DNA of 64,000 nt. Source: Patescibacteria group bacterium. Its GTDB lineage: Bacteria; Patescibacteriota; Minisyncoccia; Phycocordibacterales; Phycocordibacteraceae. Within the stretch, counting starts at the first letter, position 1, and each line of letters opens with the position of its first letter. The translations under genes were made by a program, and so were the position numbers. Below, piece by piece: positions 4,446-63,430 of this stretch. The stretch spans positions 4,777 through 68,776 of the forward strand of contig SCTS01000006.1 of assembly GCA_004322365.1 (NCBI GenBank). Direction: 5' to 3'. Below the pieces are notes generated by a model. That model was given only the letters and a program-made list of their open reading frames with translations. It was not told the DNA's origin and did no database searches.

Positions 4446-5453
4446 TTATATGTTAAATAAAGGATCAATAATACCGAGTCCGGCAAGTCCTGCGAGTAGT
4501 GCGAATGCTCCAAGGCCAATCACTAGAACTCCAGCAGATTTGAAAAAGAGCGGGGCGTGCTTTGACCCTGCAAATGAAGCAGAGCCAAAGGACAAAAGCG
4601 CGAGCATCGGGAGTGTGCCAAGGGCAAATGCAGTCATTATTAGAAATCCCGAGAGAAACGAACCGCTTGAGAGCGCAGCAATCTGCATTGTTTGAGTAAA
4701 CCCACAAGGCAAGAAAAATGTACCAACACCAATCAAGAACGGGGCTATCGTCTTATGTTCCACCTTGCGGAAGAAACTGAAAAATCCCGAGGGGAGAGCA
4801 ATCATATTTTTCTCAAATACTCCTACGAGATTAAGCCCAAGCAGAATCATCACTGTTGAAGCAATTATTCCCAGTATTGCAGTGAGAGTAAAACTAATTC
4901 CGATAGCGCTACCAATGGCACCGAGCACACCACCGAGTACAGCAAAACTAATAAGCCTGCCTCCGTGGAAAAGCATCATCGGCTTTACGTCACTAACCTT
5001 GTCCTGAGAGACTGTTGCGGAAAGGGAGAGCACTAATCCTCCAACAACCGCAAGACAACTTGAAACAGAAGCGACTAGTCCGATGATAAAACTTGTCACT
5101 GGTGTCACGGTCCCACCTAAACCAAAATTTAGGATTCCTGATTTTTGCACAATGAAAAACAGTGCGAGAAACGCTAGCCCGATGGGCAATGCCAGCCAAA
5201 TGACTCCACTGTTCTTGTTTTCCTTTGCTCGCTTCTCTATAGAGAGCTGGTAGCCATTCTGTTTAATTTGCTCGGTCAAAACTTCAGCAAGCATATGCTG
5301 CGAATCATCAAGATCGGTATCAAAAGAAACTGTCTCGTGCTTGAGATCAACTTGTGTATTTTTAATACCAATGTGCTCGTTCAGTGCATCCTCAATAAAG
5401 ATTTTGCAGGAGGCGCAGTGCGTGCCGGAAACGTGTAATGTGATAGTTTTCAT
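4446..5453 (-). CDS. HMA-domain fused to a polytopic permease (DsbD_2/UreH-like family)
   Basis: N-terminal heavy-metal-associated fold with GTHCASC (MxCxxC-type) motif, then about 6 TM helices. Start chosen at MKTITLHVSG. Confidence 0.6.
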   Translation of the reverse strand: MKTITLHVSGTHCASCKIFIEDALNEHIGIKNTQVDLKHETVSFDTDLDDSQHMLAEVLTEQIKQNGYQLSIEKRAKENKNSGVIWLALPIGLAFLALFFIVQKSGILNFGLGGTVTPVTSFIIGLVASVSSCLAVVGGLVLSLSATVSQDKVSDVKPMMLFHGGRLISFAVLGGVLGAIGSAIGISFTLTAILGIIASTVMILLGLNLVGVFEKNMIALPSGFFSFFRKVEHKTIAPFLIGVGTFFLPCGFTQTMQIAALSSGSFLSGFLIMTAFALGTLPMLALLSFGSASFAGSKHAPLFFKSAGVLVIGLGAFALLAGLAGLGIIDPLFNI

Positions 5454-7528: not shown

Positions 7529-9823
7529 TTATAGTTTCTTTACTTTTAGACGGAGTGAGTTCGTGACCACCGAAACACTCGACATAGCCATCGCAAATCC
7601 CGCAAAGACAGGCGACAACAACCAACCAAAGAACGGAAAGAATATTCCGCTCGCCAGTGGTATGCCAACGATGTTGTATATAAATGCCCAGAACAAATTT
7701 TGTTTGATTCCGCGCATTGTTAACTTTGAGAGGCGAATCGCTTTCACTATTTTAGAAACATCTCCATGAAGAAGCGTAATCCCCGCGCTTTCAATGGCCA
7801 CGTCTGTTCCTGTCGCCATTGCAATACCAACGTCAGCTTGCGCGAGCGCTGGCGCGTCATTCACCCCGTCCCCTGCCATTGCGACGACATACCCCTTGCT
7901 TTGTAACTCCTTAATTTTTGCCAGCTTATCAGCAGGCATGACCTCTGCCACAACCTCATCAATACCAACTTGATCGGCAATATAGCGTGCGGTGTTTTTG
8001 TTATCACCGGTAAGCATTACCACCTTAATCCCAAGCTTGTGCAGATTCTTTACCGCCTCAATGGCTTCCGGCTTTATCGCATCCGCAACCATAAACACCC
8101 CGAGCAACTTTTCTTTTGTTGCAAGCAAGACGGGTGTTTTACCTTCAGTGGTTTCTTTTGTTATTGACTCCGTGTCGAAACTGAGCCCTAGGTCTTGTAT
8201 TAATTTTGTATTACCTGCGAAGTATTCAACACCATCAATTAACCCCTTCACTCCTTTGCCTTTGATCGCTTCAAAACCAGTAACAGTAGGAATATCTATT
8301 TTTCTTTCTTTGGCGGAGGAAGCAATGGCGTGGGCGATTGGATGTTCAGATTTATTTTCAAGTCCTGCCAATACCGAAATAATGTTACTCTCCGATTTCT
8401 CTGAAAGATTTTTAATGGATACTAACTCAGGCTTCCCTCGAGTGAGGGTACCTGTCTTGTCGACCACGACAGTAGTCACCTTGTGAAGTTTTTCCAAAGT
8501 AGCAGCATCTTTCACTAAAATTCCTTCACGAGCGCCTTTGCCTACTCCCACAATAATCGCAGTGGGCGTAGCGAGCCCCAATGCACATGGACATGCAATT
8601 ACCAGAATTCCTACGAAAGAAACAAGTCCGTACGAAAGTGCTTGAGAGAACCCTAGGTACGGTGTACCTATCAAGAGCCATAGGTCGAGAGCAATGACTG
8701 CCAATACCAAAACTACTGGGACAAAAACAGACGAAATTTTGTCAGCCAACGCTTGAATGGGCGCCTTACTTCCTTGAGCGTCTTCAACCATTCTAATAAT
8801 CTGAGACAGGAAAGTCTGTGACCCAATTTTTGTTGCTCTAAACGTAAATACGCCTGAGGTGTTAATAGTTCCGGCCACTATCGAATCACCAAATTCTTTC
8901 TTCACTGGCATTGGCTCACCAGTAACCATAGATTCATCAACAAAAGACTCCCCTTCAGTTATTTCGCCATCAACTGGAATCTTTGCGCCAGGCTTTACGA
9001 TGATAAACTCGCCTACTTTCACTTGGTCTATGGGTATTTCTATCTCCTTTCCATCCCGTATGACGAGCGCGGTCTTTGCCTGAAGATTCAATAGCTTTTC
9101 AATCGCGTCACCTGTTTTAATCTTCGATTTTGCTTCCAGATATTTACCAAGCGTAATGAATGCAATCACCACGATAGTCACGTCGTAATAACTTTGATCA
9201 ACATTCAAATATGGGCGGAGCGATGTCTCGAGAGCCGCTATCATTAAGCTGTATGTGTACGCGGCAAGTGTTCCAATCCCTATAAGGGTGTCCATATTTG
9301 CTTTGCCATAGCGAATGAAGCGATACACACCAAGAAGATACGGTTTACCGACTACAAAAAGCACATACGTTGCAAATGCCGGTAATAGGTGATGAAAAAA
9401 TTCAGACCAAACATAGGGCATCGCCGAAATGATTTTAAATTGGGCGAGAATGTCCCACCCCATGATGAAAGCGGCAAAAATGGCAATGGGAATTGCTGAG
9501 AGTACCTTTATACGCATATCTGCAACCTCCGCTAACTTTTCCTTCTTTGTTTGATTGAGCCCGAGGTGTGCGGCATGATCTTCCGGAGACATACCCATTT
9601 CTAGAGCCGTAGCAGGGATATCTAGAGAATATCCGAGAGGCTCAATATGTTTTGATAGTTCGTGTGCGTTCGTTTTAGCGGGGTCAAAAGAGACCTTCGC
9701 TTTTTCAGTCCCATAGTTTACTTCTGCAGAATGCACGCCTTCAACTTTCTTAAATGTCTTCTCGATAGTCGAGGAGCACGAAGCACAGTGCATTCCTTTA
9801 ATGTTATACGTTTGTGTTTGCAT
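7529..9823 (-). CDS. copA: copper-translocating P1B-type ATPase
   Basis: N-terminal HMA (GMHCASC), CPC motif ([11 protein letters not shown]), DKTGT phosphorylation site, GDGVNDAP hinge. 764 aa. Confidence 0.9.
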
Positions 9824-27150: not shown

Positions 27151-28038
27151 TCATGCCTTTAAATTTGCCTGAATTTCTCCAATAAGATCGTATATATAAT
27201 CGACCGGTAGTGCTACGGAATAACCCGAGTTTTGTAAATTTGTATTATATAACTCTGGAAATCGAACGTTCCTCCATTGATCAACAAAGGGAACGAACTG
27301 AACAACTACCCCAATGAGATGGATGTCTCCATTTCCTAACCCTGTTGCGTTCATTTCTAATACAAGCCCCCCGCTATTTCCACCATACACAGGACAGTCA
27401 AGAATCAAGGATTTATTTATATTATTTTTCCCAGCGATTATTCCTTTTCTAACCAAAGGGGAATCGTAATCTATCTGATTCATTTCGGGCGTACTGAGTG
27501 ACACTGGGTAGCCAAGGATAAATATATCGTTAGTGATTACCACGTCGTCGAATCGCCTGGACCCTGTCATATCATAATGTACAATCATTCCTTCGGATTT
27601 TTGAATGATTTGTATAGTTTCAAGAAAATCGATATTGCCATCTTCACTTCTCACTTCTGCCAATTTAATAACAACAATGTCTCCGCTCGCATGTGCTTTT
27701 AAATCATTTGAATCTGAGAGTGCTTCTATATTGAGCTCGAACATCTGTGGTTTGGTAGATACCTTTCCCGAAACTACAGGATAAGCAATCATCTTCATTT
27801 TCTTATCAAGTAGATTAAAAGCCTTAGTGACTTGATCTTGCTGATAGAGAACATGCTTTGCTGTCACCAAATATAACTGGTTACCATGTCTAATAATAAA
27901 ACCCGAGCCTGAACTGCCACCGACTAAAAGCTTTACTGGGTAGCTCAAGTTATCTGTAGGTAATTTCATATCAAGTTTTTTATACTTCTTGGACTTCAAA
28001 CCTATCGCAAGTTTGCTAGAAAACAGGGATTCGGTCAC
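27151..28038 (-). CDS. cytoplasmic trypsin-like (S1 family) serine peptidase
   Basis: Catalytic triad regions TAKHV (His), GDIVVIKL (Asp), GNSGGLV (Ser). No signal peptide. GTG start. Confidence 0.7.
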   Translation of the reverse strand: MTESLFSSKLAIGLKSKKYKKLDMKLPTDNLSYPVKLLVGGSSGSGFIIRHGNQLYLVTAKHVLYQQDQVTKAFNLLDKKMKMIAYPVVSGKVSTKPQMFELNIEALSDSNDLKAHASGDIVVIKLAEVRSEDGNIDFLETIQIIQKSEGMIVHYDMTGSRRFDDVVITNDIFILGYPVSLSTPEMNQIDYDSPLVRKGIIAGKNNINKSLILDCPVYGGNSGGLVLEMNATGLGNGDIHLIGVVVQFVPFVDQWRNVRFPELYNTNLQNSGYSVALPVDYIYDLIGEIQANLKA

Positions 28039-28202
28039 CCGTCACTAAGTATTTTACTCCTCAAATTCGTAAAATACTAAGTGCGCTCAATCTCGTTCTA
28101 TTTTTTTACCCCAATTAGCTTCTTGTGTTGCTATCCGCAACATCCGCGAAGTGAATTCGAGCTTTTTTGTAATGGATCGCTTCGCTCGCAAAAAACTCTA
28201 AT

Positions 28203-28245
28203 TCAAGGCTTCAAAGGCCTCTGTCCTACTGTCTAGCGAATGAGG
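28203..28245. repeat. partial degenerate copy of tRNA-Gln (D-arm to anticodon region)
   Basis: 25 nt identical to 28307-28331 of the intact tRNA-Gln, then decays. Confidence 0.55.
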
Positions 28246-28277
28246 GGAATGAAAAAGTGTTCAATTCGTGTGCACTG

Positions 28278-28348
28278 CTGGGGAACAGGGATTCGAACCC
28301 CAATTAAAGGCTTCAAAGGCCTCTGTCCTACCATTAGACGATTCCCCA
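28278..28348 (-). tRNA. tRNA-Gln (anticodon TTG)
   Basis: Manual cloverleaf: acceptor TGGGGAA/TTCCCCA, anticodon loop CTTTGAA, T-loop TTCGAAT, discriminator G. Confidence 0.8.
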
Positions 28349-28420
28349 GCGGTGAACGCGAATACTAAGATTTAAAAGAACACTTTTTCATTTCCGAGGG
28401 AGCGCTGACAGAAAGCTTTG

Positions 28421-28441
28421 CTTACCATTAGACGATTCCCC
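28421..28441. repeat. 19-nt exact copy of the 5' end of tRNA-Gln
   Basis: ACCATTAGACGATTCCCCA is identical to 28330-28348. Confidence 0.5.
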
Positions 28442-28505
28442 ATTACCTAACTTCTAGCTTACAGGTGACAGCTTATAGGTTTTAGCTTTAAACTTCAACC
28501 TTTAT

Positions 28506-29298: not shown

Positions 29299-29340
29299 TC
29301 CTGAAAGCTGAAAGCTGGAACCTGGAACCTGACACCTAGC
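29299..29340. repeat. degenerate heptamer tandem array (GCTGAAA GCTGAAA GCTGGAA CCTGGAA CCTGACA CCTAGCT)
   Basis: Read from sequence. Member of the leader-associated heptamer family (see findings). Confidence 0.6.
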
Positions 29341-42826: not shown

Positions 42827-42888
42827 TGATCCCTTCGGATCCGATGAAGCATCGCCTAAAAGCTAGAAGCTATAACCTAGAACCTTCC
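42827..42888. repeat. leader element upstream of dus: 33-bp two-hairpin block plus heptamer array (AGCTAGA AGCTATA ACCTAGA ACCT)
   Basis: Block TGATCCCTTCGGATCCGATGAAGCATCGCCTAA is 32/33 identical to the reverse complement of 35666-35698. Confidence 0.6.
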
Positions 42889-42890
42889 TG

Positions 42891-43697
42891 TTATTCCCCT
42901 TTAAACTTTATATATACTTTGTCGCCAAAACGGAAATCTGCGTATTCAAACTCCTTGTTTTTTTTGAAGCTTTGGGATGCAAAAACTGATGCAATGTTTT
43001 CAAGGGTAGCCTGCTGGTTTGATGTAGTGCGAACAAACTTCAATACCCCACCGTCCGCAAACGCAAGCTCAACATCATTTGAAGTGCCATCAACAATAAC
43101 GGTCTCTGGAATGCGATGTATAGATGAAGCAATGCCAGTAACTAATGTATTGAGAGAAGCAAAACCGCCATCAAGGTATGTGCTACCAATAGGCACACTT
43201 GAAAGCGCCCCATAAAAACGAATCATCGGCGGTACATCCGTCACGGAAGCAAAAATAAATCCGTTTTTGTCGACACTGTAACAAGCTTCCTCTGCAGCAC
43301 CATCGCACCACAGAGCAGTCGCCCCTCGCTCTTCGGCAGTTACAGTGAGCACATTAAAACCATTTCGAGAGATGGTAATTTTTGCCAGTGGAGGAAAGGC
43401 AGTGGCTACGGCATTCTCTATATTTCTTTTTGGAAACAATAAGGAGTTTCTGTAGGGAATCCAATATGCGTATGAGCCATCCAATTTTTCTTCGACAAGT
43501 TTTTTAACTTCATCAGCTGAAACTATTGAAGTTCCTTTCACTTCAATTGAAGCAATTGTGGTTGCTGGAATACGCGCAAGAAACCACACAGCTATCAGCG
43601 ACAGAGCGACAACTGCACTGCCCGCAGCCACCTTCACCCACACTAATCGGCGTCGCCTATCTCGAAGACTAAGTTTTGGCTGTTGCGAATTTGGCAT
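42891..43697 (-). CDS. FtsQ/DivIB-like cell-division protein (TM + POTRA)
   Basis: Basic N-terminus, single TM, extracellular domain; in a division-site neighbourhood. Confidence 0.45.
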   Translation of the reverse strand: MPNSQQPKLSLRDRRRRLVWVKVAAGSAVVALSLIAVWFLARIPATTIASIEVKGTSIVSADEVKKLVEEKLDGSYAYWIPYRNSLLFPKRNIENAVATAFPPLAKITISRNGFNVLTVTAEERGATALWCDGAAEEACYSVDKNGFIFASVTDVPPMIRFYGALSSVPIGSTYLDGGFASLNTLVTGIASSIHRIPETVIVDGTSNDVELAFADGGVLKFVRTTSNQQATLENIASVFASQSFKKNKEFEYADFRFGDKVYIKFKGE

Positions 43698-44995: not shown

Positions 44996-45042
44996 AGGTT
45001 ATAGGTTACAGGTTACAGGTTACAGGTTTTAGCTTTAACAGC
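44996..45042. repeat. heptamer array AGGTTAT AGGTTAC AGGTTAC AGGTTAC AGGTTTT AGCTTTA in the serS/dprA divergent region
   Basis: Read from sequence; cleanest member of the family. Confidence 0.7.
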
Positions 45043-51499: not shown

Positions 51500-51543
51500 C
51501 CTGTATAGTATAATTTAACGGTCGTTAAATTATACTATACAGG
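51500..51543. promoter_or_regulatory. 44-bp perfect palindrome CCTGTATAGTATAATTTAACG-GT-CGTTAAATTATACTATACAGG (copy 1)
   Basis: 21-bp arms; contains TATAAT on both strands; second copy at 56610-56651. Confidence 0.6.
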
Positions 51544-51701: not shown

Positions 51702-51782
51702 GCCGGAGTGGTGGAATGGTATACACGCACGACTCAAAATCGTGTCTCGCAAGGGATGAGGGTTCGAGTCCCTCCTCCGGCA
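51702..51782 (+). tRNA. tRNA-Leu (anticodon CAA)
   Basis: Manual fold: acceptor GCCGGAG/CTCCGGC, anticodon stem CACGA/TCGTG with loop CTCAAAA, long variable arm, T-loop TTCGAGT. Confidence 0.8.
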
Positions 51783-51833
51783 CTTGCCAAGCAAGAAGAC
51801 GGAGCACACTGCATTTCTGCAGTGTGGGAGAGG

Positions 51834-51875
51834 GGCTCGAAAAGCGGAAGACGCCTCGTCTCCCTATCGAGGGCC
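51834..51875. repeat. inverted copy (D) of the tRNA-associated repeat body (GGAAGACGCCTCGTCTCC hairpin core)
   Basis: Reverse complement matches ..CCCTCAAAGGGAGACGAGGCGTCTTGAGCTCGAAA of repeat A. Confidence 0.5.
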
Positions 51876-52000
51876 AGTGTTTTTTGCAACAAAAAACCGT
51901 GAGGCGGCGATTAGAAAATCGTGCCGAGAGGCTCTGCGACTTAAGGTGAACATGGGTGAACCTTAAAGTTCTAGGTGTGTTCCCCTTCCTTCTGGCACAC

Positions 52001-52450: not shown

Positions 52451-52458
52451 CGATCCAA

Positions 52459-52495
52459 AAGCTGAAAGCTGTAACCTGACACCTGAAAGCTGGTC
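52459..52495. repeat. heptamer array GCTGAAA GCTGTAA CCTGACA CCTGAAA GCTGG between prx and 5-FCL
   Basis: Read from sequence. Confidence 0.6.
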
Positions 52496-56609: not shown

Positions 56610-56651
56610 CAATATAGTATAATCTAACGGTCGTTAAATTATACTATATTG
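56610..56651. promoter_or_regulatory. second copy of the 44-bp TATAAT-containing palindrome (one arm mismatch)
   Basis: CAATATAGTATAATCTAACG-GT-CGTTAAATTATACTATATTG. Confidence 0.6.
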
Positions 56652-58486: not shown

Positions 58487-59074
58487 TTAAAGAATCTTCT
58501 CTCGAAAAAGAATTAACTCACTAGACTCAGGTATTGCTTCATCGCCAGTCAGTCGGAACCCAAACTCTTCGTACATGTCTTGCGCAACGACCTCTTCAGG
58601 TGCAGTAGTTGTCCATAGTCGTAATTTCTCAAAACCAATTAAGCGAGCCTTGGAAATAGTTTTTTTAAGCAATGACCGCCCATACCCCTTCCCGCGATAC
58701 TGAGGAGTAACCCCAAACCACCCAAGCCATGCTACATCATTCGTATCCTCCATTTTTGTTTCAAGACCAGTGATTCCTGCCACATCGTGTGACTTTTTTG
58801 ATTTCGTGGCAACCCAATACTTCTGGGTTTTTATACCATTCGCGAGCATCTCCTCATTAAATCTTTCAGGTTCCAAACTCATTCGATAATCCCGTTCAAC
58901 TGCGATTTGATCTTTTGGATTACCAAATATTTCAAAAGCAGAACCGAGGGCGCGTGAAAATATTGAAGGGGAAATCCCATGCAACTTTATACGCGCACTT
59001 TTATGGTGATGTTCTTGGATCCTTTCATCACCATAGGAAACATAGGAAACACCTTGAGGAGACTCAAAACTCAT
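58487..59074 (-). CDS. GNAT family N-acetyltransferase
   Basis: Motif A region VAWLGWFGVTPQYRGKGYGRSLL (Q/RxxGxG/A). Confidence 0.75.
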   Translation of the reverse strand: MSFESPQGVSYVSYGDERIQEHHHKSARIKLHGISPSIFSRALGSAFEIFGNPKDQIAVERDYRMSLEPERFNEEMLANGIKTQKYWVATKSKKSHDVAGITGLETKMEDTNDVAWLGWFGVTPQYRGKGYGRSLLKKTISKARLIGFEKLRLWTTTAPEEVVAQDMYEEFGFRLTGDEAIPESSELILFREKIL

Positions 59075-59162
59075 ACCTTATAAAATATACTCTTCTGTTC
59101 GAAGTAAGTAAAAAAGTATCTTTTGTATACAAGCAACTATAGTCGCTTCGCTCGTTATTTTT

Positions 59163-59220
59163 GCGGGGCCACAAGGATTCGCCTCTCGTCGCTGCTGCAA
59201 CTCGAAACCTACGGCCGCTC
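59163..59220. repeat. repeat C: tRNA-Trp 3'-end-like fragment (GGCCACAAGGATTCG) joined to the conserved repeat body (CTCTCG..CTCGAAACCTACGGCCGCTC)
   Basis: 16/17 match to 59546-59562 of tRNA-Trp. Body shared with repeat A. Confidence 0.55.
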
Positions 59221-59223
59221 AAA

Positions 59224-59457
59224 TCAAGATAGATGCCTTTTTATGAAAGCTCTTCCGGAACCTGATTTGAGATATTTTTCAAACTCAAATGCTTTGTATT
59301 TATCTGCGATAGCAACATAGAATTCCAAAGCTACAGGTAGACGCTCTCTCGTGGCAAGAACTTGACCTTTCATATGCCTACTCATTCTATCTTTCAAATC
59401 AGTAGTACATCCAATATAGAATCCGTCTTTGCACTTTAAGCTATATACATACCACAT
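59224..59457 (-). CDS. GIY-YIG nuclease family protein (small)
   Basis: YVYSLKCKDGFYIGCTTDLKDRMSRH carries the GIY..YIG and catalytic Arg motifs. 77 aa. Confidence 0.7.
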   Translation of the reverse strand: MWYVYSLKCKDGFYIGCTTDLKDRMSRHMKGQVLATRERLPVALEFYVAIADKYKAFEFEKYLKSGSGRAFIKRHLS

Positions 59458-59543
59458 AAAATTTCACTTCAGCGGGTTTCACCACGCCGAAGCCATGACG
59501 AATCCCACCTTCGTCTCGAGACGGGACTTCGGCGTGGCAAAGG

Positions 59544-59614
59544 CGGGCCCACAAGGATTCGAACCTTGATCGACGGTTTTGGAGACCGTAATTCTACCAT
59601 TGAACTATAGGCCC
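59544..59614 (-). tRNA. tRNA-Trp (anticodon CCA)
   Basis: Manual fold: acceptor GGGCCTA/TGGGCCC, anticodon stem ACGGT/ACCGT with loop CTCCAAA, T-arm CAAGG-TTCGAAT-CCTTG. Confidence 0.8.
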
Positions 59615-59685
59615 TATTGAGTCACCAGTATAAATGAAAAAAGGGAAAAAGTATTTCCCTTTCAAACATCAAAAATAAGCAATGC

Positions 59686-59844
59686 TTACTTTTTAGCTTC
59701 TTTGAAGGTCACGCGCTTCCTGACCACTGGGTCGTACTTTTTGAGCGCCATTTTTGTATTCGCAAGCTTCTTTTTGTTTTTGGTAGTCCAAATAACATGG
59801 CCAGAAGCCGAGGATTTCATCTTGATGAGGTTATCTTGTGACAT
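59686..59844 (-). CDS. rpmG: 50S ribosomal protein L33
   Basis: 52-aa ORF, below the 60-aa threshold of the ORF track: [52 protein letters not shown]. Matches L33 (..[28 protein letters not shown]). Confidence 0.8.
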
Positions 59845-59895
59845 GCCGTGTACTATACCTCAGGTTCTACTATGGGTCAAAATCCGAGAATCTCC

Positions 59896-60417
59896 TTATA
59901 CTCCCTGCCCCAAAGACCCACTTGCTCGCTTAACAAGCTCATCTCTCAAAACCTCTGCATCTGCTTTTGATACTCCAGGTAATCTTCCTTCTGCGCTGAT
60001 ACCTGCCATCCCATATCGGCTTATCGAAGCACTCGCCCCTGCCGTTTGAATATGCAAATCTGAAAGACCTAGTAAGCGCGCCAGAATGCCACGATTAATA
60101 TCAACATTTTGGATTCGTGCATAAGGTATGGTGACGTATTTTTTCCAAATTACTCCAGATTCCTTACGAAACCCTAAATCGGTTAACTCGTAGCGATAGT
60201 AGTGATATGAGAGCTTTGCCCAAATAAATGATAATGCTATCAAAACGAGGAATATCAGCACGAGCCATGTTACGAGGGTAATAATCCAATTTCCATCGAA
60301 GATCCCTTCAATCGCAATCAACACTACCCATCCGGTAAACATCATACTGAGTACGAATGACCCGAATACGGAGCTAAGAAAAAATAACCACACTGCTTTT
60401 TTGTCTAGTTGTTTCAT
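59896..60417 (-). CDS. bacterial PH-domain (bPH_2/YdbS-like) membrane protein
   Basis: Two N-terminal TM helices then PH-like domain (YRYELTDLGFRKESGVIWKKYVTIPYARIQNVDI..). Confidence 0.6.
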   Translation of the reverse strand: MKQLDKKAVWLFFLSSVFGSFVLSMMFTGWVVLIAIEGIFDGNWIITLVTWLVLIFLVLIALSFIWAKLSYHYYRYELTDLGFRKESGVIWKKYVTIPYARIQNVDINRGILARLLGLSDLHIQTAGASASISRYGMAGISAEGRLPGVSKADAEVLRDELVKRASGSLGQGV

Positions 60418-60465
60418 AGAAAATATATAAATAAGTGAACTCCTTTCAGTATATAACAAATCTCG

Positions 60466-60550
60466 GGTTGGATTCGCTTCTCGCGTTTGACCCTCAAAGG
60501 GAGACGAGGCGTCTTGAGCTCGAAACCTACGGTCGCTGTGCGGACAACAG
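60466..60550. repeat. repeat A: tRNA-Tyr T-arm-like fragment (GGGTTGGATTCG) joined to repeat body with GGAGACGAGGCGTCTTG hairpin and CTCGAAACCTACGGTCGCTGTGCGGACAAC
   Basis: 12/12 identity to 63354-63365 of tRNA-Tyr. Same orientation as repeat B on the other side of the copper cassette. Confidence 0.6.
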
Positions 60551-60600
60551 TTCCAACTGCAACTATTCAGAATAGATGAAGAAACTTGTTGTTCATATGA

Positions 60601-60819
60601 TTAGATAATTTCCCCTGTCTTCTCAAGCATCATGTGATGGATGGTGCTGATGGCAAGCCAGATTGCAATAAGCATGAGGACAGCTGAGCACATGAGTGCA
60701 TCCATTTTCGTGATTCCGAACACGTCCTCAGAATTACCGAAAACACTAATCAAGAAAGATACAACTCCAATAAATCCGGCAACTACACTGCCTACATGTA
60801 TTGCTTTTGATAGTTTCAT
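60601..60819 (-). CDS. small 2-TM HHM-motif membrane protein (paralog of 5476-5697)
   Basis: 72 aa; about 45% identical to the locus-1 paralog; 24 bp downstream of the copB-type ATPase. Confidence 0.5.
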   Translation of the reverse strand: MKLSKAIHVGSVVAGFIGVVSFLISVFGNSEDVFGITKMDALMCSAVLMLIAIWLAISTIHHMMLEKTGEII

Positions 60820-60842: not shown

Positions 60843-62762
60843 TTATAAAGTTCTTCTTCCCAGCAGAACCGCATTGATCGCCACAATGACAGTTGAAAGA
60901 GACATGAACACCGCCGCTAACCACGGTTGCAATATAATACCCCAAGGCGCGAGTACTCCAGCAGCCAATGGAATAGCGACGACGTTATAGCCGGTTGCCC
61001 AGAAGAGATTCTGGATCATTTTATTGTAGGTAAGACGGGAGAGATTAAAAATTTTCGGAATATCTCTCGGGTCATTTTTAACAAGTATTATTCCCGCAGA
61101 TTCAATGGCCACGTTTGTACCTGCGCCAATTGCGATACCTAGGTTTGCTTGAGCAAGAGCGGGGGCATCATTTACTCCGTCGCCAACCATTGCAACTCTG
61201 CGACCATTACTTTGGAGCAACTTTACTTTTTCAGATTTTTCTTCAGGTCGAACGCACGCAAAATACTCATCAATACCAAGCTCGTTGGCAACTTCTTTCG
61301 CTACGTCCTCGGAATCTCCCGTAATCATCGAGACTAAAATGCCTGCTTCTTTCAAATGTGCCACTGCTTCCTTTGCTTCAGGGCGAACAGAATCGGCTAC
61401 TACGATCGTGCCAATAACCTCACCATCTTTTTCAACGACAATATCCTTACCACCTCGATGACCAACAAAAATAGTAATGCCGTCCACTTTTGCTTCTACT
61501 CCAGTACCCGCGATAGTTTTAAACTCTCTTACTTCTCCAATGTGTAGATTTCTCTTTTGAGCTTCTTTCAGAATTGCCTTGCCGATTGGGTGCTCGGAGT
61601 TTGTTTCCACTGCGGCTGCGAGTGCAAGTACCTCATCTGAGGTTACTGAAACGACACCAAATTCTCCTTTGGTGAGCGTACCCGTTTTATCGAACAAGAC
61701 CGTATCAATCTTCCGAGCTTCTTCAAGTGCGATTCTTTGGCGGATTAACAAACCATTTCTTGCTGCCATTGTTGTTGATATCGCAGCAACTAGCGGTACT
61801 GCCAGACCTAGTGCATGAGGGCAGGCAATTACGAGAACGGCGACAAAACGCTCGACAGCGGTGAGAGTGCCGGCGCCTAGAGCGATCCATGCTGTAAACG
61901 TAATGCCCCCACCAACGATAGCTACAATGGTGAGATAGAACGCAGCTTGATCTGAAAGCACCTGTAATCGCGACTTTGACGCCTGTGCCTCAGCTACCAG
62001 GCGCATTACTCCTGCAAGAAACGTTTTCTCTCCAATGGTACTAATCTCAACTGTGAGGCTACCATCTCCATTTATTGAACCAGCGATGACCTCGGCGCCT
62101 ACAGTTTTTCGCACTGGCTTCGATTCTCCTGTAAGAATGGATTCATTTACATTTGATAGCCCCTCAATTACTTTGCCATCAGCAGGGATTTTTGAGCCCG
62201 GCTTTATCAAAACAACATCGCCAACCTTAAGTTCAGAAATTGAGATCGTTATCGTAGAGCCACCACGAATAACATCTGCAGTATCAGGGAGCAGTTTTGA
62301 TAACTCTTTGAGTGCCCCTTGTGCGTTGGTGACAGATTTCATCTCAATCCAATGACCAAGAAGCATAATTGTTATTAGAGACGCGAGTTCAAACATCAGA
62401 TCATGCATCCCGCCTGAGAGTATTGAGAAGGTGCTATACGCGTAAGCGGCAGTAACTGCAATGGCAATGAGCGTCATCATGCCGGGCAATCTGTCTTTTA
62501 GCTCCCGGTATGCACTTTGGAGAAATACCCAACCACAGTAAAAGTAGGTAACCGAGCCGAGTAGAAGCAAAAGGTATTGCCACCCGATGAACTCGGGACC
62601 ACGAATATTAAAAACCTCCATAGCCATTTCTGAGTAGAAGAAAATGGGGACGGAAAGTACCAAAGAAATCCAGAACTTCTTTAAGAAGTCGGCAGTGTGA
62701 TGCCCGGCGTGTTTGTCATGCTGTGCCTCATGCTGGTGATGAGGCGAGTGGTTGTGGTCCAT
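60843..62762 (-). CDS. P1B-type heavy-metal ATPase, CopB-like (CPH motif, His-rich N-terminus, no HMA domain)
   Basis: MDHNHSPHHQHEAQHDKHAGHH N-terminus, [26 protein letters not shown]. Confidence 0.85.
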   Translation of the reverse strand: MDHNHSPHHQHEAQHDKHAGHHTADFLKKFWISLVLSVPIFFYSEMAMEVFNIRGPEFIGWQYLLLLLGSVTYFYCGWVFLQSAYRELKDRLPGMMTLIAIAVTAAYAYSTFSILSGGMHDLMFELASLITIMLLGHWIEMKSVTNAQGALKELSKLLPDTADVIRGGSTITISISELKVGDVVLIKPGSKIPADGKVIEGLSNVNESILTGESKPVRKTVGAEVIAGSINGDGSLTVEISTIGEKTFLAGVMRLVAEAQASKSRLQVLSDQAAFYLTIVAIVGGGITFTAWIALGAGTLTAVERFVAVLVIACPHALGLAVPLVAAISTTMAARNGLLIRQRIALEEARKIDTVLFDKTGTLTKGEFGVVSVTSDEVLALAAAVETNSEHPIGKAILKEAQKRNLHIGEVREFKTIAGTGVEAKVDGITIFVGHRGGKDIVVEKDGEVIGTIVVADSVRPEAKEAVAHLKEAGILVSMITGDSEDVAKEVANELGIDEYFACVRPEEKSEKVKLLQSNGRRVAMVGDGVNDAPALAQANLGIAIGAGTNVAIESAGIILVKNDPRDIPKIFNLSRLTYNKMIQNLFWATGYNVVAIPLAAGVLAPWGIILQPWLAAVFMSLSTVIVAINAVLLGRRTL

Positions 62763-62795: not shown

Positions 62796-63035
62796 TCAAC
62801 ATCTCATCGATAGCTTTTTTTCTTTACCGATCTTCATCTGATGTAATACGTGAGTAGATAGGTGGTTTTCAAGCATAAGATTTTCCACTCCGGAAAGCGC
62901 CTCCTTGATTGCATTCGACTGCGTAATAATCTCAATACAGTATTTTTCGTCTTCAATCATCTTCATCAGGCCCTTTAGCTGACCTTGTACAATTTGGAGA
63001 CGACGAACAATTTTTTTCTTAGTATCAGACTTCAT
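62796..63035 (-). CDS. CsoR/RcnR family repressor (second copy)
   Basis: RRLQIVQGQLKGLMKMIE..YC..H..C. Start trimmed to MKSDTKKK. Confidence 0.75.
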   Translation of the reverse strand: MKSDTKKKIVRRLQIVQGQLKGLMKMIEDEKYCIEIITQSNAIKEALSGVENLMLENHLSTHVLHQMKIGKEKKLSMRC

Positions 63036-63042
63036 TATAGTA

Positions 63043-63062
63043 TTATACCCCCTAGGGGTATT
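63043..63062. promoter_or_regulatory. CsoR-type box TATACCCCCTAGGGGTATTA (one G shorter than the locus-1 box), 8 bp upstream of the csoR-2 start
   Basis: Same ATACCCCC-TA-GGGGTAT core as 10129-10156. Confidence 0.6.
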
Positions 63063-63140
63063 AGACACAAACAAAACACCCCTTATTTTTCGAATCCAGC
63101 AAAAAAGTCATTTGTGCGGACATGGGTAAATCTAGACGAA

Positions 63141-63212
63141 TTGGATTCGGTTCTTACATTTGACCCTCAGAGGAAGACAAAGCGTCTTCCGTCCGCGCAC
63201 TTGTGCGGACAC
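63141..63212. repeat. repeat B: TTGGATTCG fragment joined to repeat body (TTTGACCCTCAGAGGAAGACAAAGCGTCTTCC..TGTGCGGACA)
   Basis: About 75% identical to repeat A over 55 nt; lies 135 bp from the tRNA-Tyr 3' end. Confidence 0.6.
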
Positions 63213-63347
63213 GGATAAATCTCCTGACGGAGATTTTCCGCGATCCCCGCCTCGGTATTTTTGCCTTTCGCTTCGCTCAAACAAAAATATACCTGCGGCC
63301 GCGCACAAAGCAGAAAACCTCCCGCAGGGGAGGTATTTCTAGCTTTG

Positions 63348-63430
63348 TGCGCCGGGTTGGATTCGAACCAACGAAGACCGAAGTCAGGAGATTTACAGTC
63401 TCCCCTCGTTGACCACTTGAGTACCGACGC
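63348..63430 (-). tRNA. tRNA-Tyr (anticodon GTA)
   Basis: Manual fold: acceptor GCGTCGG/CCGGCGC (one G-T pair), anticodon loop CTGTAAA, long variable hairpin TGACTTCGGTCTTCG, T-arm GTTGG-TTCGAAT-CCAAC. Confidence 0.8.

Follow-up and report, generated by a model that had tools for sequence, protein, structure and literature searches.

A bare GIY-YIG nuclease gene and a hairpin element behind tRNA genes of Patescibacteria: a candidate selfish cassette

In a 64-kb stretch of DNA from a Patescibacteria group bacterium (hereafter the window, meaning the whole stretch analysed), a tRNA-Trp gene is followed on its own strand by a GC-rich spacer, by a gene for a GIY-YIG nuclease of 77 amino acids (aa) and by a repeat, repeat C, that holds a displaced copy of the tRNA 3' end (Table 1). 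This layout raises the question of whether the nuclease gene is a resident of the chromosome or part of a mobile element that enters tRNA genes. The locus had been described in an earlier note, made from the letters alone, and that description is accurate within a base or two: the tRNA-Trp gene given there at 59544-59614 on the minus strand is called at 59542-59614 by ARAGORN and at 59544-59614 by Rfam, the 77-aa gene behind it and the rpmG gene placed at 59686-59844 have Pfam matches (PF01541, E = 2e-12, and PF00471), and the spacer, taken as 85 bp and structured, is structured and measures 84 nucleotides (nt).

Our favoured reading, in which our confidence is about evenly balanced, is that the locus represents a single member of a large family of selfish cassettes, which lie at tRNA 3' ends and have a minimal nuclease of the Slx1/UPF0213 type at their core. 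The unit comprises the 3' part of the tRNA (T-loop to C75), a palindromic element, a terminal hairpin and the 77-aa GIY-YIG gene. Its insertion point and its orientation are constant, its junction hairpin comes from the target, a minority of cases keep tRNA-end remnants, and there is turnover at the level of loci; its mobility is what we infer from the comparisons below.

A nuclease gene and a palindromic element tied to tRNA 3' ends

More than 1,699 relatives of the window protein were found, with identities typically of 70-84%; where a source is named, it is almost always labelled Patescibacteria. A scan of one genome per species gave at least 546 relatives, with a few Bacteroidota at 61-64% identity among the matches listed. 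Eighty-eight loci were fetched, and the 74 non-redundant ones with enough upstream sequence were used to count linkage, their tRNAs being called with ARAGORN. A tRNA gene on the same strand was found upstream of the GIY-YIG open reading frame (ORF) in 67 of these 74 loci, with the tRNA end 64-349 nt (median 95) before the start, against a background of 3.3% of strand positions that lie equally close behind another tRNA in these tRNA-rich loci. Thus, the suggestion in the earlier note that small GIY-YIG ORFs stand beside tRNA genes describes a general pattern. The linked partners are tRNA-Ser in 53 loci (all four isoacceptors), tRNA-Trp in 9, tRNA-Asp in 2, tRNA-Pro in 2 and, in one case, a Trp-like tRNA(UCA). 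Seven loci are left: five of them (L025, L026, L034, L067 and L085) still start with ...CCGCC followed by TTCG, with no more than a tRNA 3'-end fragment in front, the tRNA-Ser of L069 was missed by ARAGORN, and in Fulvivirga kasyanovii JCM 16186 (L060) the cassette stands downstream of the transfer-messenger RNA (tmRNA) gene. Neither the spacer motif nor the gene was found at about 55 other tRNA genes in the same loci (Arg, Thr, Tyr, Glu, Leu, Cys, Val and others). All linked tRNAs end in YCCGCC or CCCGAC, followed by TTCG; the unlinked ones end in ...GCAC, ...GCTC or CTCCGC, followed by A.

The proteins show no clean clustering by partner. Trp-linked proteins appear at no fewer than five places in the protein tree, the Trp-linked protein of the window is 84% identical to a Ser-linked one (L008) versus 77% to other Trp-linked proteins, and Trp-linked cassettes occupy several distinct neighbourhoods.

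Some loci hold more than one cassette or tRNA of interest. Two cassettes stand in tandem in L082 (1300-2178), in the order tRNA-Ser(GCT), GIY, tRNA-Ser(TGA), GIY, and a second, more divergent GIY-YIG ORF lies within 2-3 kb in L011, L077 and L087. In L040 (2118-3231) the cassette stands behind the Trp-like tRNA with anticodon UCA, labelled 'SeC' by ARAGORN, and an ordinary tRNA-Trp(CCA) without a cassette is found 700 nt upstream; the UCA tRNA may have arisen by duplication, as a tRNA-Trp that reads UGA.

The product of the gene is a bare catalytic domain belonging to the UPF0213/Slx1-type branch of the GIY-YIG superfamily. Its match to PF01541 scores 47.6 bits against a cut-off of 22.6, and it contains no other Pfam domain. 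The catalytic residues, whose absence the earlier note had named as something that would refute its reading, are conserved in the aligned relatives: Y3/Y5, Y14-I-G16, R24, R27, H28 and E60 (the GIY and YIG motifs, the Arg, the His and the metal-binding Glu) are invariant or nearly so, and in the sets of 32 and 84 relatives this was invariance for Y5, Y14, G16, R24, H28 and E60 and near invariance for R27. A family-specific C-terminal motif, FEKYLKSGSGRxF, is conserved as well. Searches with phmmer found the UPF0213 protein BH0048 (PDB 1zg2, E = 4.5e-6) and 1ywl (E = 0.07). The AlphaFold2 model (pLDDT 91.3; E2-9, E12-18, H21-29, E41-50, H53-64, H67-76) predicts the beta-beta-alpha-beta-alpha-alpha fold of GIY-YIG domains, a three-stranded sheet flanked by helices, and the top Foldseek matches were 1zg2, the Slx1 nuclease domain 7cq3 (template-modelling score, TM, 0.67; root-mean-square deviation 2.8 A), the UvrC N-terminal domain 1yd6 and the I-TevI catalytic domain 1ln0. 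No recognisable DNA-binding domain was found in the 77-aa protein by Pfam or in the AlphaFold2 model, the chain ending at residue 77, so this is not a classical homing endonuclease. Indeed, the model for group I intron endonucleases (TIGR01453) reached 15.9 bits, far under its cut-off of 56 bits, and a weak PHROG homing-endonuclease match (E = 0.009) covers residues 1-37 only. A defence system was rejected for lack of PADLOC matches, and a phage origin was rejected after tblastn found nothing in 50,697 phage records and a single weak match in IMG/VR.

Between the tRNA and the gene, what had been noted simply as structure is a conserved palindrome with a distal hairpin that copies the tRNA end, a part that the earlier note missed. 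The window spacer folds into one long hairpin (dG -34.3 kcal/mol, z = -3.3 against shuffles). The left arm of the element is TTTGCCACGCCGAAG (59527-59541) and the right arm CTTCGGCGTGGTGAA (59478-59492; reverse complement TTCACCACGCCGAAG), with an inner hairpin, CGTCTCGAGACG, between them. Its inverted-repeat ends are identical at 11 of 13 positions in the window, and across 53 loci the family mean is 8.7/13 versus 5.0/13 in controls. A direct repeat of 5-6 nt, CCCGCC and CCCGCT, flanks it in the window. In the family as a whole the element is 35-110 nt long and always starts, with TTCG, directly after ...YCCGMC; in the window the tRNA-Trp terminus ...GGGCCCGCC, in which the final A of CCA is not encoded, passes immediately into TTTG of the element.

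Covariation supports the fold. When 19 short versions were aligned, a nested structure of three stems (P1-P2-P3) with 18 pairs was obtained, in which 95.2% of cells are paired. Double-sided changes occur in 46 cells of this alignment versus 14 in shuffles, and the covariation score is 0.383 versus 0.172 in shuffles and at most 0.10 when partners are slid by 1-3 columns. G.U cells far outnumber A.C cells (20 versus 2), which assigns the fold to the sense strand, be it in RNA or in top-strand DNA. Longer versions, including that of the window, carry the same modules arranged serially in one long hairpin. The window and its strain-level relative L099 differ by two transitions in the CCGCCUUYG/CGAAGGYGG pair, both of which keep pairing by wobble.

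The palindromic element is not a genome-wide repeat. Its distal motif is single-copy in the window and, over 440 kb searched on both strands, occurs 71 times in tRNA-GIY spacers versus 11 times elsewhere, several of these 11 sites adjoining another tRNA-Ser or a second cassette. A known RNA family was rejected for the spacer, since Rfam 15 gave no match to it, the gathering scan of the whole window returned tRNAs only, and a scan at E <= 10 over 58900-60700 returned nothing credible besides tRNAs. The tail GCGAAGGCGG was likewise discarded as a Shine-Dalgarno sequence, its distance of 12-16 nt to the ATG being too long and too variable among spacers.

The distal hairpin, P3, mirrors the end of the upstream tRNA. 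The window P3 has a 3' arm (59471-59477) that repeats the final 6 nt of tRNA-Trp, CCCGCC, and a 5' arm complementary to this copy. The same rule applies to the family, the 3' arm repeating the last 6-7 nt before the element and the 5' arm being their complement, and in 50 of 53 loci, with Ser, Trp, Pro and Asp partners among them, P3 is concordant with the end of the upstream tRNA. Accordingly, tRNA-Ser ending in ...TCCGCC goes with GGCG(T)GAC-NNN-GTCCGCC, tRNA-Trp ending in ...CCCGCC with a P3 ending in ...ACCCGCC, tRNA-Pro ending in ...CCCGAC with GTCGGGC-AAC-GCCCGAC, and tRNA-Asp ending in ...GACCGCC with GGCGGTC-GAA-GACCGCC. An A often comes after the 3' arm, giving ...GCCA. Since Trp-linked proteins are scattered in the tree and the window protein is nearer to a Ser-linked one than to other Trp-linked ones, the match between P3 and tRNA must have been re-established repeatedly. 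This is expected if one arm of P3 arises from the target during insertion, as a short duplication of it; the constant complementarity of the other arm could reflect selection for a hairpin, a fold-back repair product or a guide function.

Displaced tRNA ends and turnover among related loci

The displaced end in repeat C, CGAATCCTTGTGGCCCCGC, differs from the corresponding 19 nt of the live tRNA-Trp, CGAATCCTTGTGGGCCCGC, by one mismatch. Against the last 20 nt of the tRNA it scores 18/20, which none of 200 shuffles equalled, and 17/18 in a 3-kb scan, and it is kept in the strain-level relative L099. Both claims made earlier about this repeat, that it contains a near-exact tRNA-Trp 3' end and that it shares its body with another repeat, repeat A, were borne out: the 18-mer CTCGAAACCTACGGYCGC is present at 59201 and at 60519 (-60536) and nowhere else in the window, with 0.04 occurrences expected. 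The terminus of repeat A, CGAATCCAACCCG (60464-60476), is tRNA-Tyr-like and not tRNA-Trp-like, and the orthologue of repeat A in the related locus L101 bears a complete tRNA-Tyr 3' end. The body of repeat C is not significantly structured (z = -0.6), and neither repeat C nor repeat A is more stable than shuffles.

Readings of repeat C as a tmRNA or as a split or intron-containing tRNA were discarded, with no call by ARAGORN, unpaired T-stem halves and a stability no greater than that of shuffles. A group I intron in the tRNA was also rejected, as the inserts are not long enough, are located within or behind the T-loop and have no Rfam intron match; group I introns described in tRNA genes of Patescibacteria are located at position 35/36 (PMC13011429).

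Downstream copies of the tRNA 3' end are a minority trait. Under a strict threshold (at least 15/18, within 3 kb) they were found in 4 of 66 loci, namely the window, L056, L079 and L081, and degraded copies were found in five further loci (L059, L065, L010, L029 and L014). The attL-cargo-attR geometry that the earlier note had proposed, with the nuclease as sole cargo, is therefore real and recurs in L056, L079 and L081, and in degraded form in the five others, but most family members have no attR. Where present, the copies lie 33-75 nt past the stop codon, and the nuclease gene is thus the only cargo; a larger island with the GIY-YIG gene at its edge was rejected, as the 3-kb downstream scan of the 66 loci found copies at no other distance.

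The ends of the unit can be read from several comparisons. In L079 and L059 the ORF is flanked on either side by a copy of the stretch that runs from the T-loop of the tRNA through the whole spacer. Right ends of the cassette are ...CCGTAGGTT (window, L014, L059, L065) or ...GTGAC (L010, L079), abutting CGAATCC..., and the two ends of the unit together compose a T-arm, as for an attP that recombines in the T-loop. Two loci, L049 and L052, share a stretch of 96% identity whose limits are exactly position -1 of tRNA-Trp and +44 past the stop codon, between flanks that are unrelated.

Relatives of the window locus, located through the flanking GNAT acetyltransferase gene, differ in what they carry behind the tRNA. 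L099 (97% nucleotide identity) has the same arrangement as the window. L104 (GNAT 69%) has an identical tRNA-Trp, a different spacer, a GIY-YIG allele that is 67% identical and no remnant. L101 (GNAT 80%) consists of rpmG, tRNA-Trp, 290 nt of non-coding DNA and GNAT, with no GIY-YIG gene and two tRNA-Trp remnants; it holds the homologous repeat C junction, ...GCACCAGCAACGAGAGG followed by TGATTC..., and the remnant that uses this junction (...ACGAGAGG) matches L101's own tRNA variant. The earlier note had taken the cassette to interrupt an rpmG-tRNA-Trp-secE-nusG neighbourhood. This does not hold, since relatives with and without the cassette (L099, L101 and L104) are all rpmG-tRNA-Trp-(X)-GNAT; the gene order belongs to the lineage and was not created by a 0.45-kb insertion.

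Partial and empty sites were found elsewhere. In L067 a gene starting M.ITICGSMQFH... lies directly behind tRNA-Ser(CGA) (4812-4960), and in L074 (5278-5440) the same gene lies behind a 69-nt palindromic element without GIY, a clean example of a hairpin-only versus an empty site. L114 is a hairpin-only tRNA-Trp site, and at least one truncated cassette copy exists (L074). A clean filled/empty pair at high identity was not found among the relatives compared. A metagenome scan for an intact tRNA-Trp with the 'old' 3' end gave nine loci, none with the flanks of the window, which included empty tRNA-Trp sites, an ORF-less T-loop insertion and a hairpin-only site. Recent jumps were sought through identical proteins and rejected: P0078 (24 contigs read) and P0011 (13 contigs) are each found in one context.

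A homing-like route and its alternatives

Under the selfish-cassette reading, the unit would be, or would recently have been, an element that enters tRNA genes and replaces their 3' part with its own copy. The tRNA would stay functional because the cassette supplies the replacement, and the old 3' end would be displaced downstream (59163-59181 in the window) and then decay. The nuclease may initiate the process by cutting the cassette-free cognate tRNA gene, or hairpin or branched DNA there, and repair might then copy the cassette from the occupied allele in a homing-like manner, with the tRNA itself as homology; homology of this kind would explain the spread over distant Patescibacteria and into Bacteroidota. 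The ORF is probably expressed by read-through from the tRNA promoter, as no promoter-like site was seen in the window spacer, and the palindrome probably folds in the sense-strand RNA, separating tRNA maturation from the mRNA.

Several points weigh against this reading. A 77-aa domain without a DNA-binding domain leaves site-specific cutting unexplained. About 85-90% of loci carry no downstream remnant, including the Trp-linked L001 and L104, and the earlier note had named relatives with the gene and without the tRNA duplication as the pattern of an ancestral, non-mobile gene; nevertheless, the variable partner, the absence from L101, the L104 allele and the L049/L052 unit argue against simple vertical inheritance. 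Identical proteins always occupy the same context, so there is no sign of jumping at the strain level. L101, a relative lacking the GIY-YIG gene, also has the repeat C junction, and the window remnant may therefore predate the present GIY-YIG copy or stem from another T-loop element. The identity of the GIY-YIG alleles of the window and L104 (67%) is close to that of the flanking GNAT genes (69%), which makes vertical descent possible at this locus. Finally, the protein tree was built on 77 residues and is poorly resolved.

We think it unlikely that the gene is instead a resident, non-mobile Slx1-like structure-specific nuclease that has long been co-transcribed with tRNA-Ser and tRNA-Trp genes of Patescibacteria, the remnants being left by other T-loop elements. 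Such a gene might serve, for instance, in resolving hairpins or R-loops where tRNA genes are heavily transcribed, or might act on tRNA trailers. The very high conservation of the protein, with its invariant catalytic residues, would agree with a resident gene, as would the fixed position and orientation behind the tRNA, the stable context among strains and the lack of remnants at most loci; moreover, ORF-less T-loop insertions leave remnants independently (L109/L112, L101 and the window tRNA-Gln), and the repeat C junction occurs in L101. However, many tRNA-Ser and tRNA-Trp genes do without it, some in the same loci and one, in L101, at the same locus. The partner varies (four Ser isoacceptors, Trp, Asp, Pro and tmRNA) without clean clustering, the L049/L052 unit sits between unrelated flanks, and cassettes occur in tandem or duplicated form (L082, L079, L059) and truncated (L074). 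Identities of 70-84% across classes of the Candidate Phyla Radiation (CPR) and of 61-64% to Bacteroidota also fit transfer better than descent. Somewhat more doubtful still, in our view, is a non-autonomous passenger moved by a recombinase encoded elsewhere, either a T-loop integrase or an inverted-repeat transposase, with the GIY-YIG gene as cargo that, for example, stabilises the insertion or acts in addiction or defence. The cassette ends form a circularly permuted T-arm (left CGAATCC..., right ...CCGTAGGTT or ...GTGAC abutting CGAATCC), exactly what recombination of attP and attB in a tRNA T-loop would yield; ORF-less elements have the same T-loop junction; copies without GIY exist (L074 versus the empty L067; L114); and the inverted-repeat ends with a 5-6-nt flanking direct repeat resemble a miniature inverted-repeat transposable element (MITE). 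Against this, no recombinase or integrase was found among the adjacent genes, since none of the four neighbours scanned with Pfam (DUF3750, GNAT, L33 and bPH_2) is one and the farther flanking ORFs (Acyl_transf_3-like and P-type ATPase, named from sequence only) are also unlike one. The GIY-YIG gene itself occupies the usual position of an island integrase, the confinement of the hairpin (71 sites in tRNA-GIY spacers versus 11 elsewhere) is unlike that of a transposase-driven MITE, and PADLOC is blank and the family missing from phage records and nearly so from IMG/VR.

The lack of a DNA-binding domain suggests asking whether the hairpin provides the specificity. In the boldest reading, to which we give a small chance, the nuclease and the adjacent hairpin would form a self-contained system targeting tRNA ends, in which the hairpin pairs with the last 6-7 nt of the tRNA and the nuclease only cuts; recognition by pairing would explain why the arm changes with a Ser, Trp, Pro or Asp target. 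If true, this would be the first nucleic-acid-guided GIY-YIG mobile element and an integrase-free colonisation of tRNA genes. The corresponding explanation of the locus as a nucleic-acid-guided nuclease, with a hairpin RNA or top-strand DNA hairpin whose anti-tRNA-end segment pairs with the end of the tRNA gene, seems to us improbable; its candidate pairing segments would be the 5' arm of P3 and CGAAGGCGG, which is complementary to ...CCGCC+TTCG. The 5' arm does complement the last 6-7 nt of any upstream tRNA, including the change from GGCG to GTCG for tRNA-Pro (...CGAC), the transitions between the window and L099 keep pairing by wobble, the fold is sense-strand-specific, insertions keep to one orientation and position, and the protein has no DNA-binding domain. 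Nevertheless, the complementarity would follow trivially were the 3' arm a target-site duplication and the hairpin simply under selection to fold, and in the Asp-linked L066 the arm matches its own partner arm and not the tRNA. We also know of no RNA- or hairpin-guided GIY-YIG enzyme; analogous logic is found in the guide sequences of IS200/IS605 and the bridge RNAs of IS110.

Returning to the selfish cassette, comparison with known systems shows where it stands apart. Its best sequence and fold matches are UPF0213/YhbQ-YazA and the Slx1 domain, with which it shares the single-domain size and the catalytic Tyr/Arg/His/Glu set, but the cassette subfamily has its own invariant C-terminal motif FEKYLKSGSGRAF. 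Slx1 requires its partner Slx4 and a RING domain; for bacterial UPF0213 proteins we know of no established function and of no described link to tRNA genes or to a palindromic element. As in islands and prophages whose integrases target tRNA genes, there is an intact tRNA (attL), cargo, a displaced repeat that starts in the T-loop (attR) and a replacement 3' end brought by the element itself; unlike in these, the cargo is only about 0.3 kb, no recombinase was found among the neighbours, the gene beside the tRNA encodes a GIY-YIG protein and attR is mostly absent. The palindrome recalls MITE-like repeats such as Correia and REP/BIME, being short and GC-rich, with inverted-repeat ends, a short flanking direct repeat and hairpins within longer RNAs; it differs in not being dispersed, in being nearly confined to tRNA-GIY spacers in one orientation, and in a distal arm that changes with the tRNA.

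The closest parallel in logic is SegB of phage T4, a free-standing GIY-YIG homing endonuclease in the phage tRNA cluster whose inheritance along with flanking tRNA markers depends on cutting of the allele that lacks the endonuclease, followed by repair (PMC2330249). Both are free GIY-YIG genes between genes and beside tRNAs, and selfish spread is the logic proposed here as well. Whereas SegB and I-TevI exceed 200 aa and carry a C-terminal DNA-binding domain, the cassette protein is a 77-aa catalytic domain, and whereas Seg genes are phage-borne and have neither a palindrome nor a copy of the tRNA 3' end, the cassette is chromosomal in Patescibacteria and Bacteroidota and has both. GIY-YIG ORFs have also been described in non-intron insertions of CPR rRNA genes, where they were judged sparse and not spread by homing (PMC11270868). 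These insertions, compared here at the level of the enzyme superfamily, share with the cassette the phylum, a location at stable-RNA genes and the fact that they are not group I or II introns; they lie, however, inside rRNA genes, and no tRNA-linked module, palindrome or tRNA-end mimic is described there (PMC11270868). A GIY-YIG domain protein is listed among the genes transferred out of Patescibacteria (PMC12455944). In the full-text literature searched, which does not cover most subscription journals, no description of tRNA-linked GIY-YIG genes, of the palindrome or of the tRNA-end hairpin was found. Overall, the cassette shares its logic with SegB-type homing and with tRNA islands, but it fails a defining test of each, having no DNA-binding domain and no recombinase that could be found.

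Were the selfish-cassette reading true, tRNA genes of Patescibacteria and of some Bacteroidota would have been colonised on a large scale by an apparently undescribed type of cassette with nothing in it but a structured palindrome and a bare nuclease domain. Part of the long-orphan UPF0213/YhbQ family would gain a function, and homing-type selfish DNA, known from phage and organelle genomes, would reach into the tRNA genes of bacterial chromosomes. The reading would also explain a source of gene-order breaks and of tRNA-fragment 'graveyards' in these genomes, and offer a very small, possibly programmable pair of nuclease and hairpin. As one carrier is a named strain, F. kasyanovii JCM 16186, experiments may be feasible.

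Surroundings of the locus and other tRNA-flank elements in the window

Features of the locus are collected in Table 1. Read on the minus strand, a terminator-like hairpin lies between rpmG and tRNA-Trp, and repeat C is followed by the GNAT acetyltransferase gene and then by a DUF3750 gene. Apart from the ORF of the cassette (59224-59457), tblastn found no GIY-YIG gene in the 64-kb window.

Table 1. Positions of the cassette, its parts and neighbouring features in the window
Feature	Positions	Strand	Basis or remarks
rpmG (ribosomal protein L33)	59686-59844	minus	Pfam PF00471, E = 1.2e-11; upstream neighbour, outside the cassette
tRNA-Trp, anticodon CCA	59542-59614	minus	ARAGORN; Rfam RF00005 at 59544-59614, 68.7 bits
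Spacer between tRNA-Trp and ORF, GC-rich	59458-59541	minus	84 nt
Palindromic element between tRNA-Trp and ORF	59478-59541	minus	Fold, arm identity, family covariation
Distal hairpin P3, GGCGTGGT-GAA-ACCCGCT	59471-59488	minus	Distal motif; tracks the upstream tRNA
Minimal GIY-YIG nuclease gene, UPF0213/Slx1 type, catalytic domain alone, 77 aa	59224-59457	minus	Pfam PF01541
Repeat C	59163-59218	minus	Body plus displaced tRNA-Trp 3' end
Repeat C body, GCGGCCGTAGGTTTCGAG-TTGCAGCAGCGA-CGAGAGG	59182-59218	minus	T-arm-like end ...GTAGGTT(T)CGAG abutting the tRNA remnant
Displaced tRNA-Trp 3' end, attR-like, CGAATCCTTGTGGCCCCGC	59163-59181	minus	T-loop to discriminator
Motif GAGCGAAGCGA	59143-59153	minus	Follows the old tRNA-Trp end; opens a second, ORF-less kind of tRNA-flank element
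Repeat A	60464-60540	minus	Shared head GCGACCGTAGGTTTCGAG, longer body, tRNA-Tyr-type 3' end; 2.8 kb from tRNA-Tyr (63347-63430)

The motif GAGCGAAGCGA occurs exactly three times in the 64 kb (63268-63278, 59143-59153 and 28177-28187), always on the minus strand and downstream of tRNA-Tyr, tRNA-Trp and tRNA-Gln, respectively, on the strand of the tRNA. Related motifs open ORF-less elements of about 150 nt that end in ...GTGAC followed by CGAATCC in L101, L109/L112, L010 and L029. Elements of this type seem to be a second, gene-less family associated with the T-loop.

The tRNA-Gln gene (28277-28348, minus) lies amid the pieces of a second tRNA-Gln, in a region spanning 28022-28442: the 5' 20 nt are found at 28423-28442, a part of the anticodon arm at 28205-28229, and a 3' remnant, CGAATCCCTGTT..., occupies 28022-28033 and adjoins ...GGGTGAC, the junction falling at 28027-28038. 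This region looks like the product of serial insertions into an older tRNA gene.

Between 60464 and 63430, tRNA-Tyr and repeat A bracket a CsoR-like repressor ORF (62796-63074, a name given from its letters), a P-type metal ATPase gene (60843-62762) and a 72-aa membrane ORF; this 2.8-kb region, in which no integrase is visible, is a candidate metal-resistance islet. An extra copy of the repeat body, followed by CGAATCCAA, lies at 63141-63191. A further copy of the repeat A body, GAAGACGCCTCGTCTCCCTATCGAGGGCCAG, is found at 51845-51880, 62-97 nt past tRNA-Leu (51702-51783, plus), in the same orientation to its tRNA as the copies on the tRNA-Tyr side.

Other repeats were seen in the window. Perfect palindromes of 36 nt, TATAGTATAATTTAACGGTCGTTAAATTATACTATA, lie at 51504-51539 and 56613-56648; they are 97% identical and 5.1 kb apart, with tRNA-Leu in between. 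Low-complexity repeats of AGCTGAAAGCTG / ACAGGTTACAGGT units occur in both orientations at 28452-28491, 29304-29337, 42859-42892, 44999-45038 and 52458-52491, one of them just upstream of tRNA-Gln. Finally, a direct repeat of 117 nt links 7769-7885 and 61080-61196 with 74% identity and, because its second copy lies within the P-type ATPase gene, it probably marks a paralogous ATPase gene near 7.8 kb.

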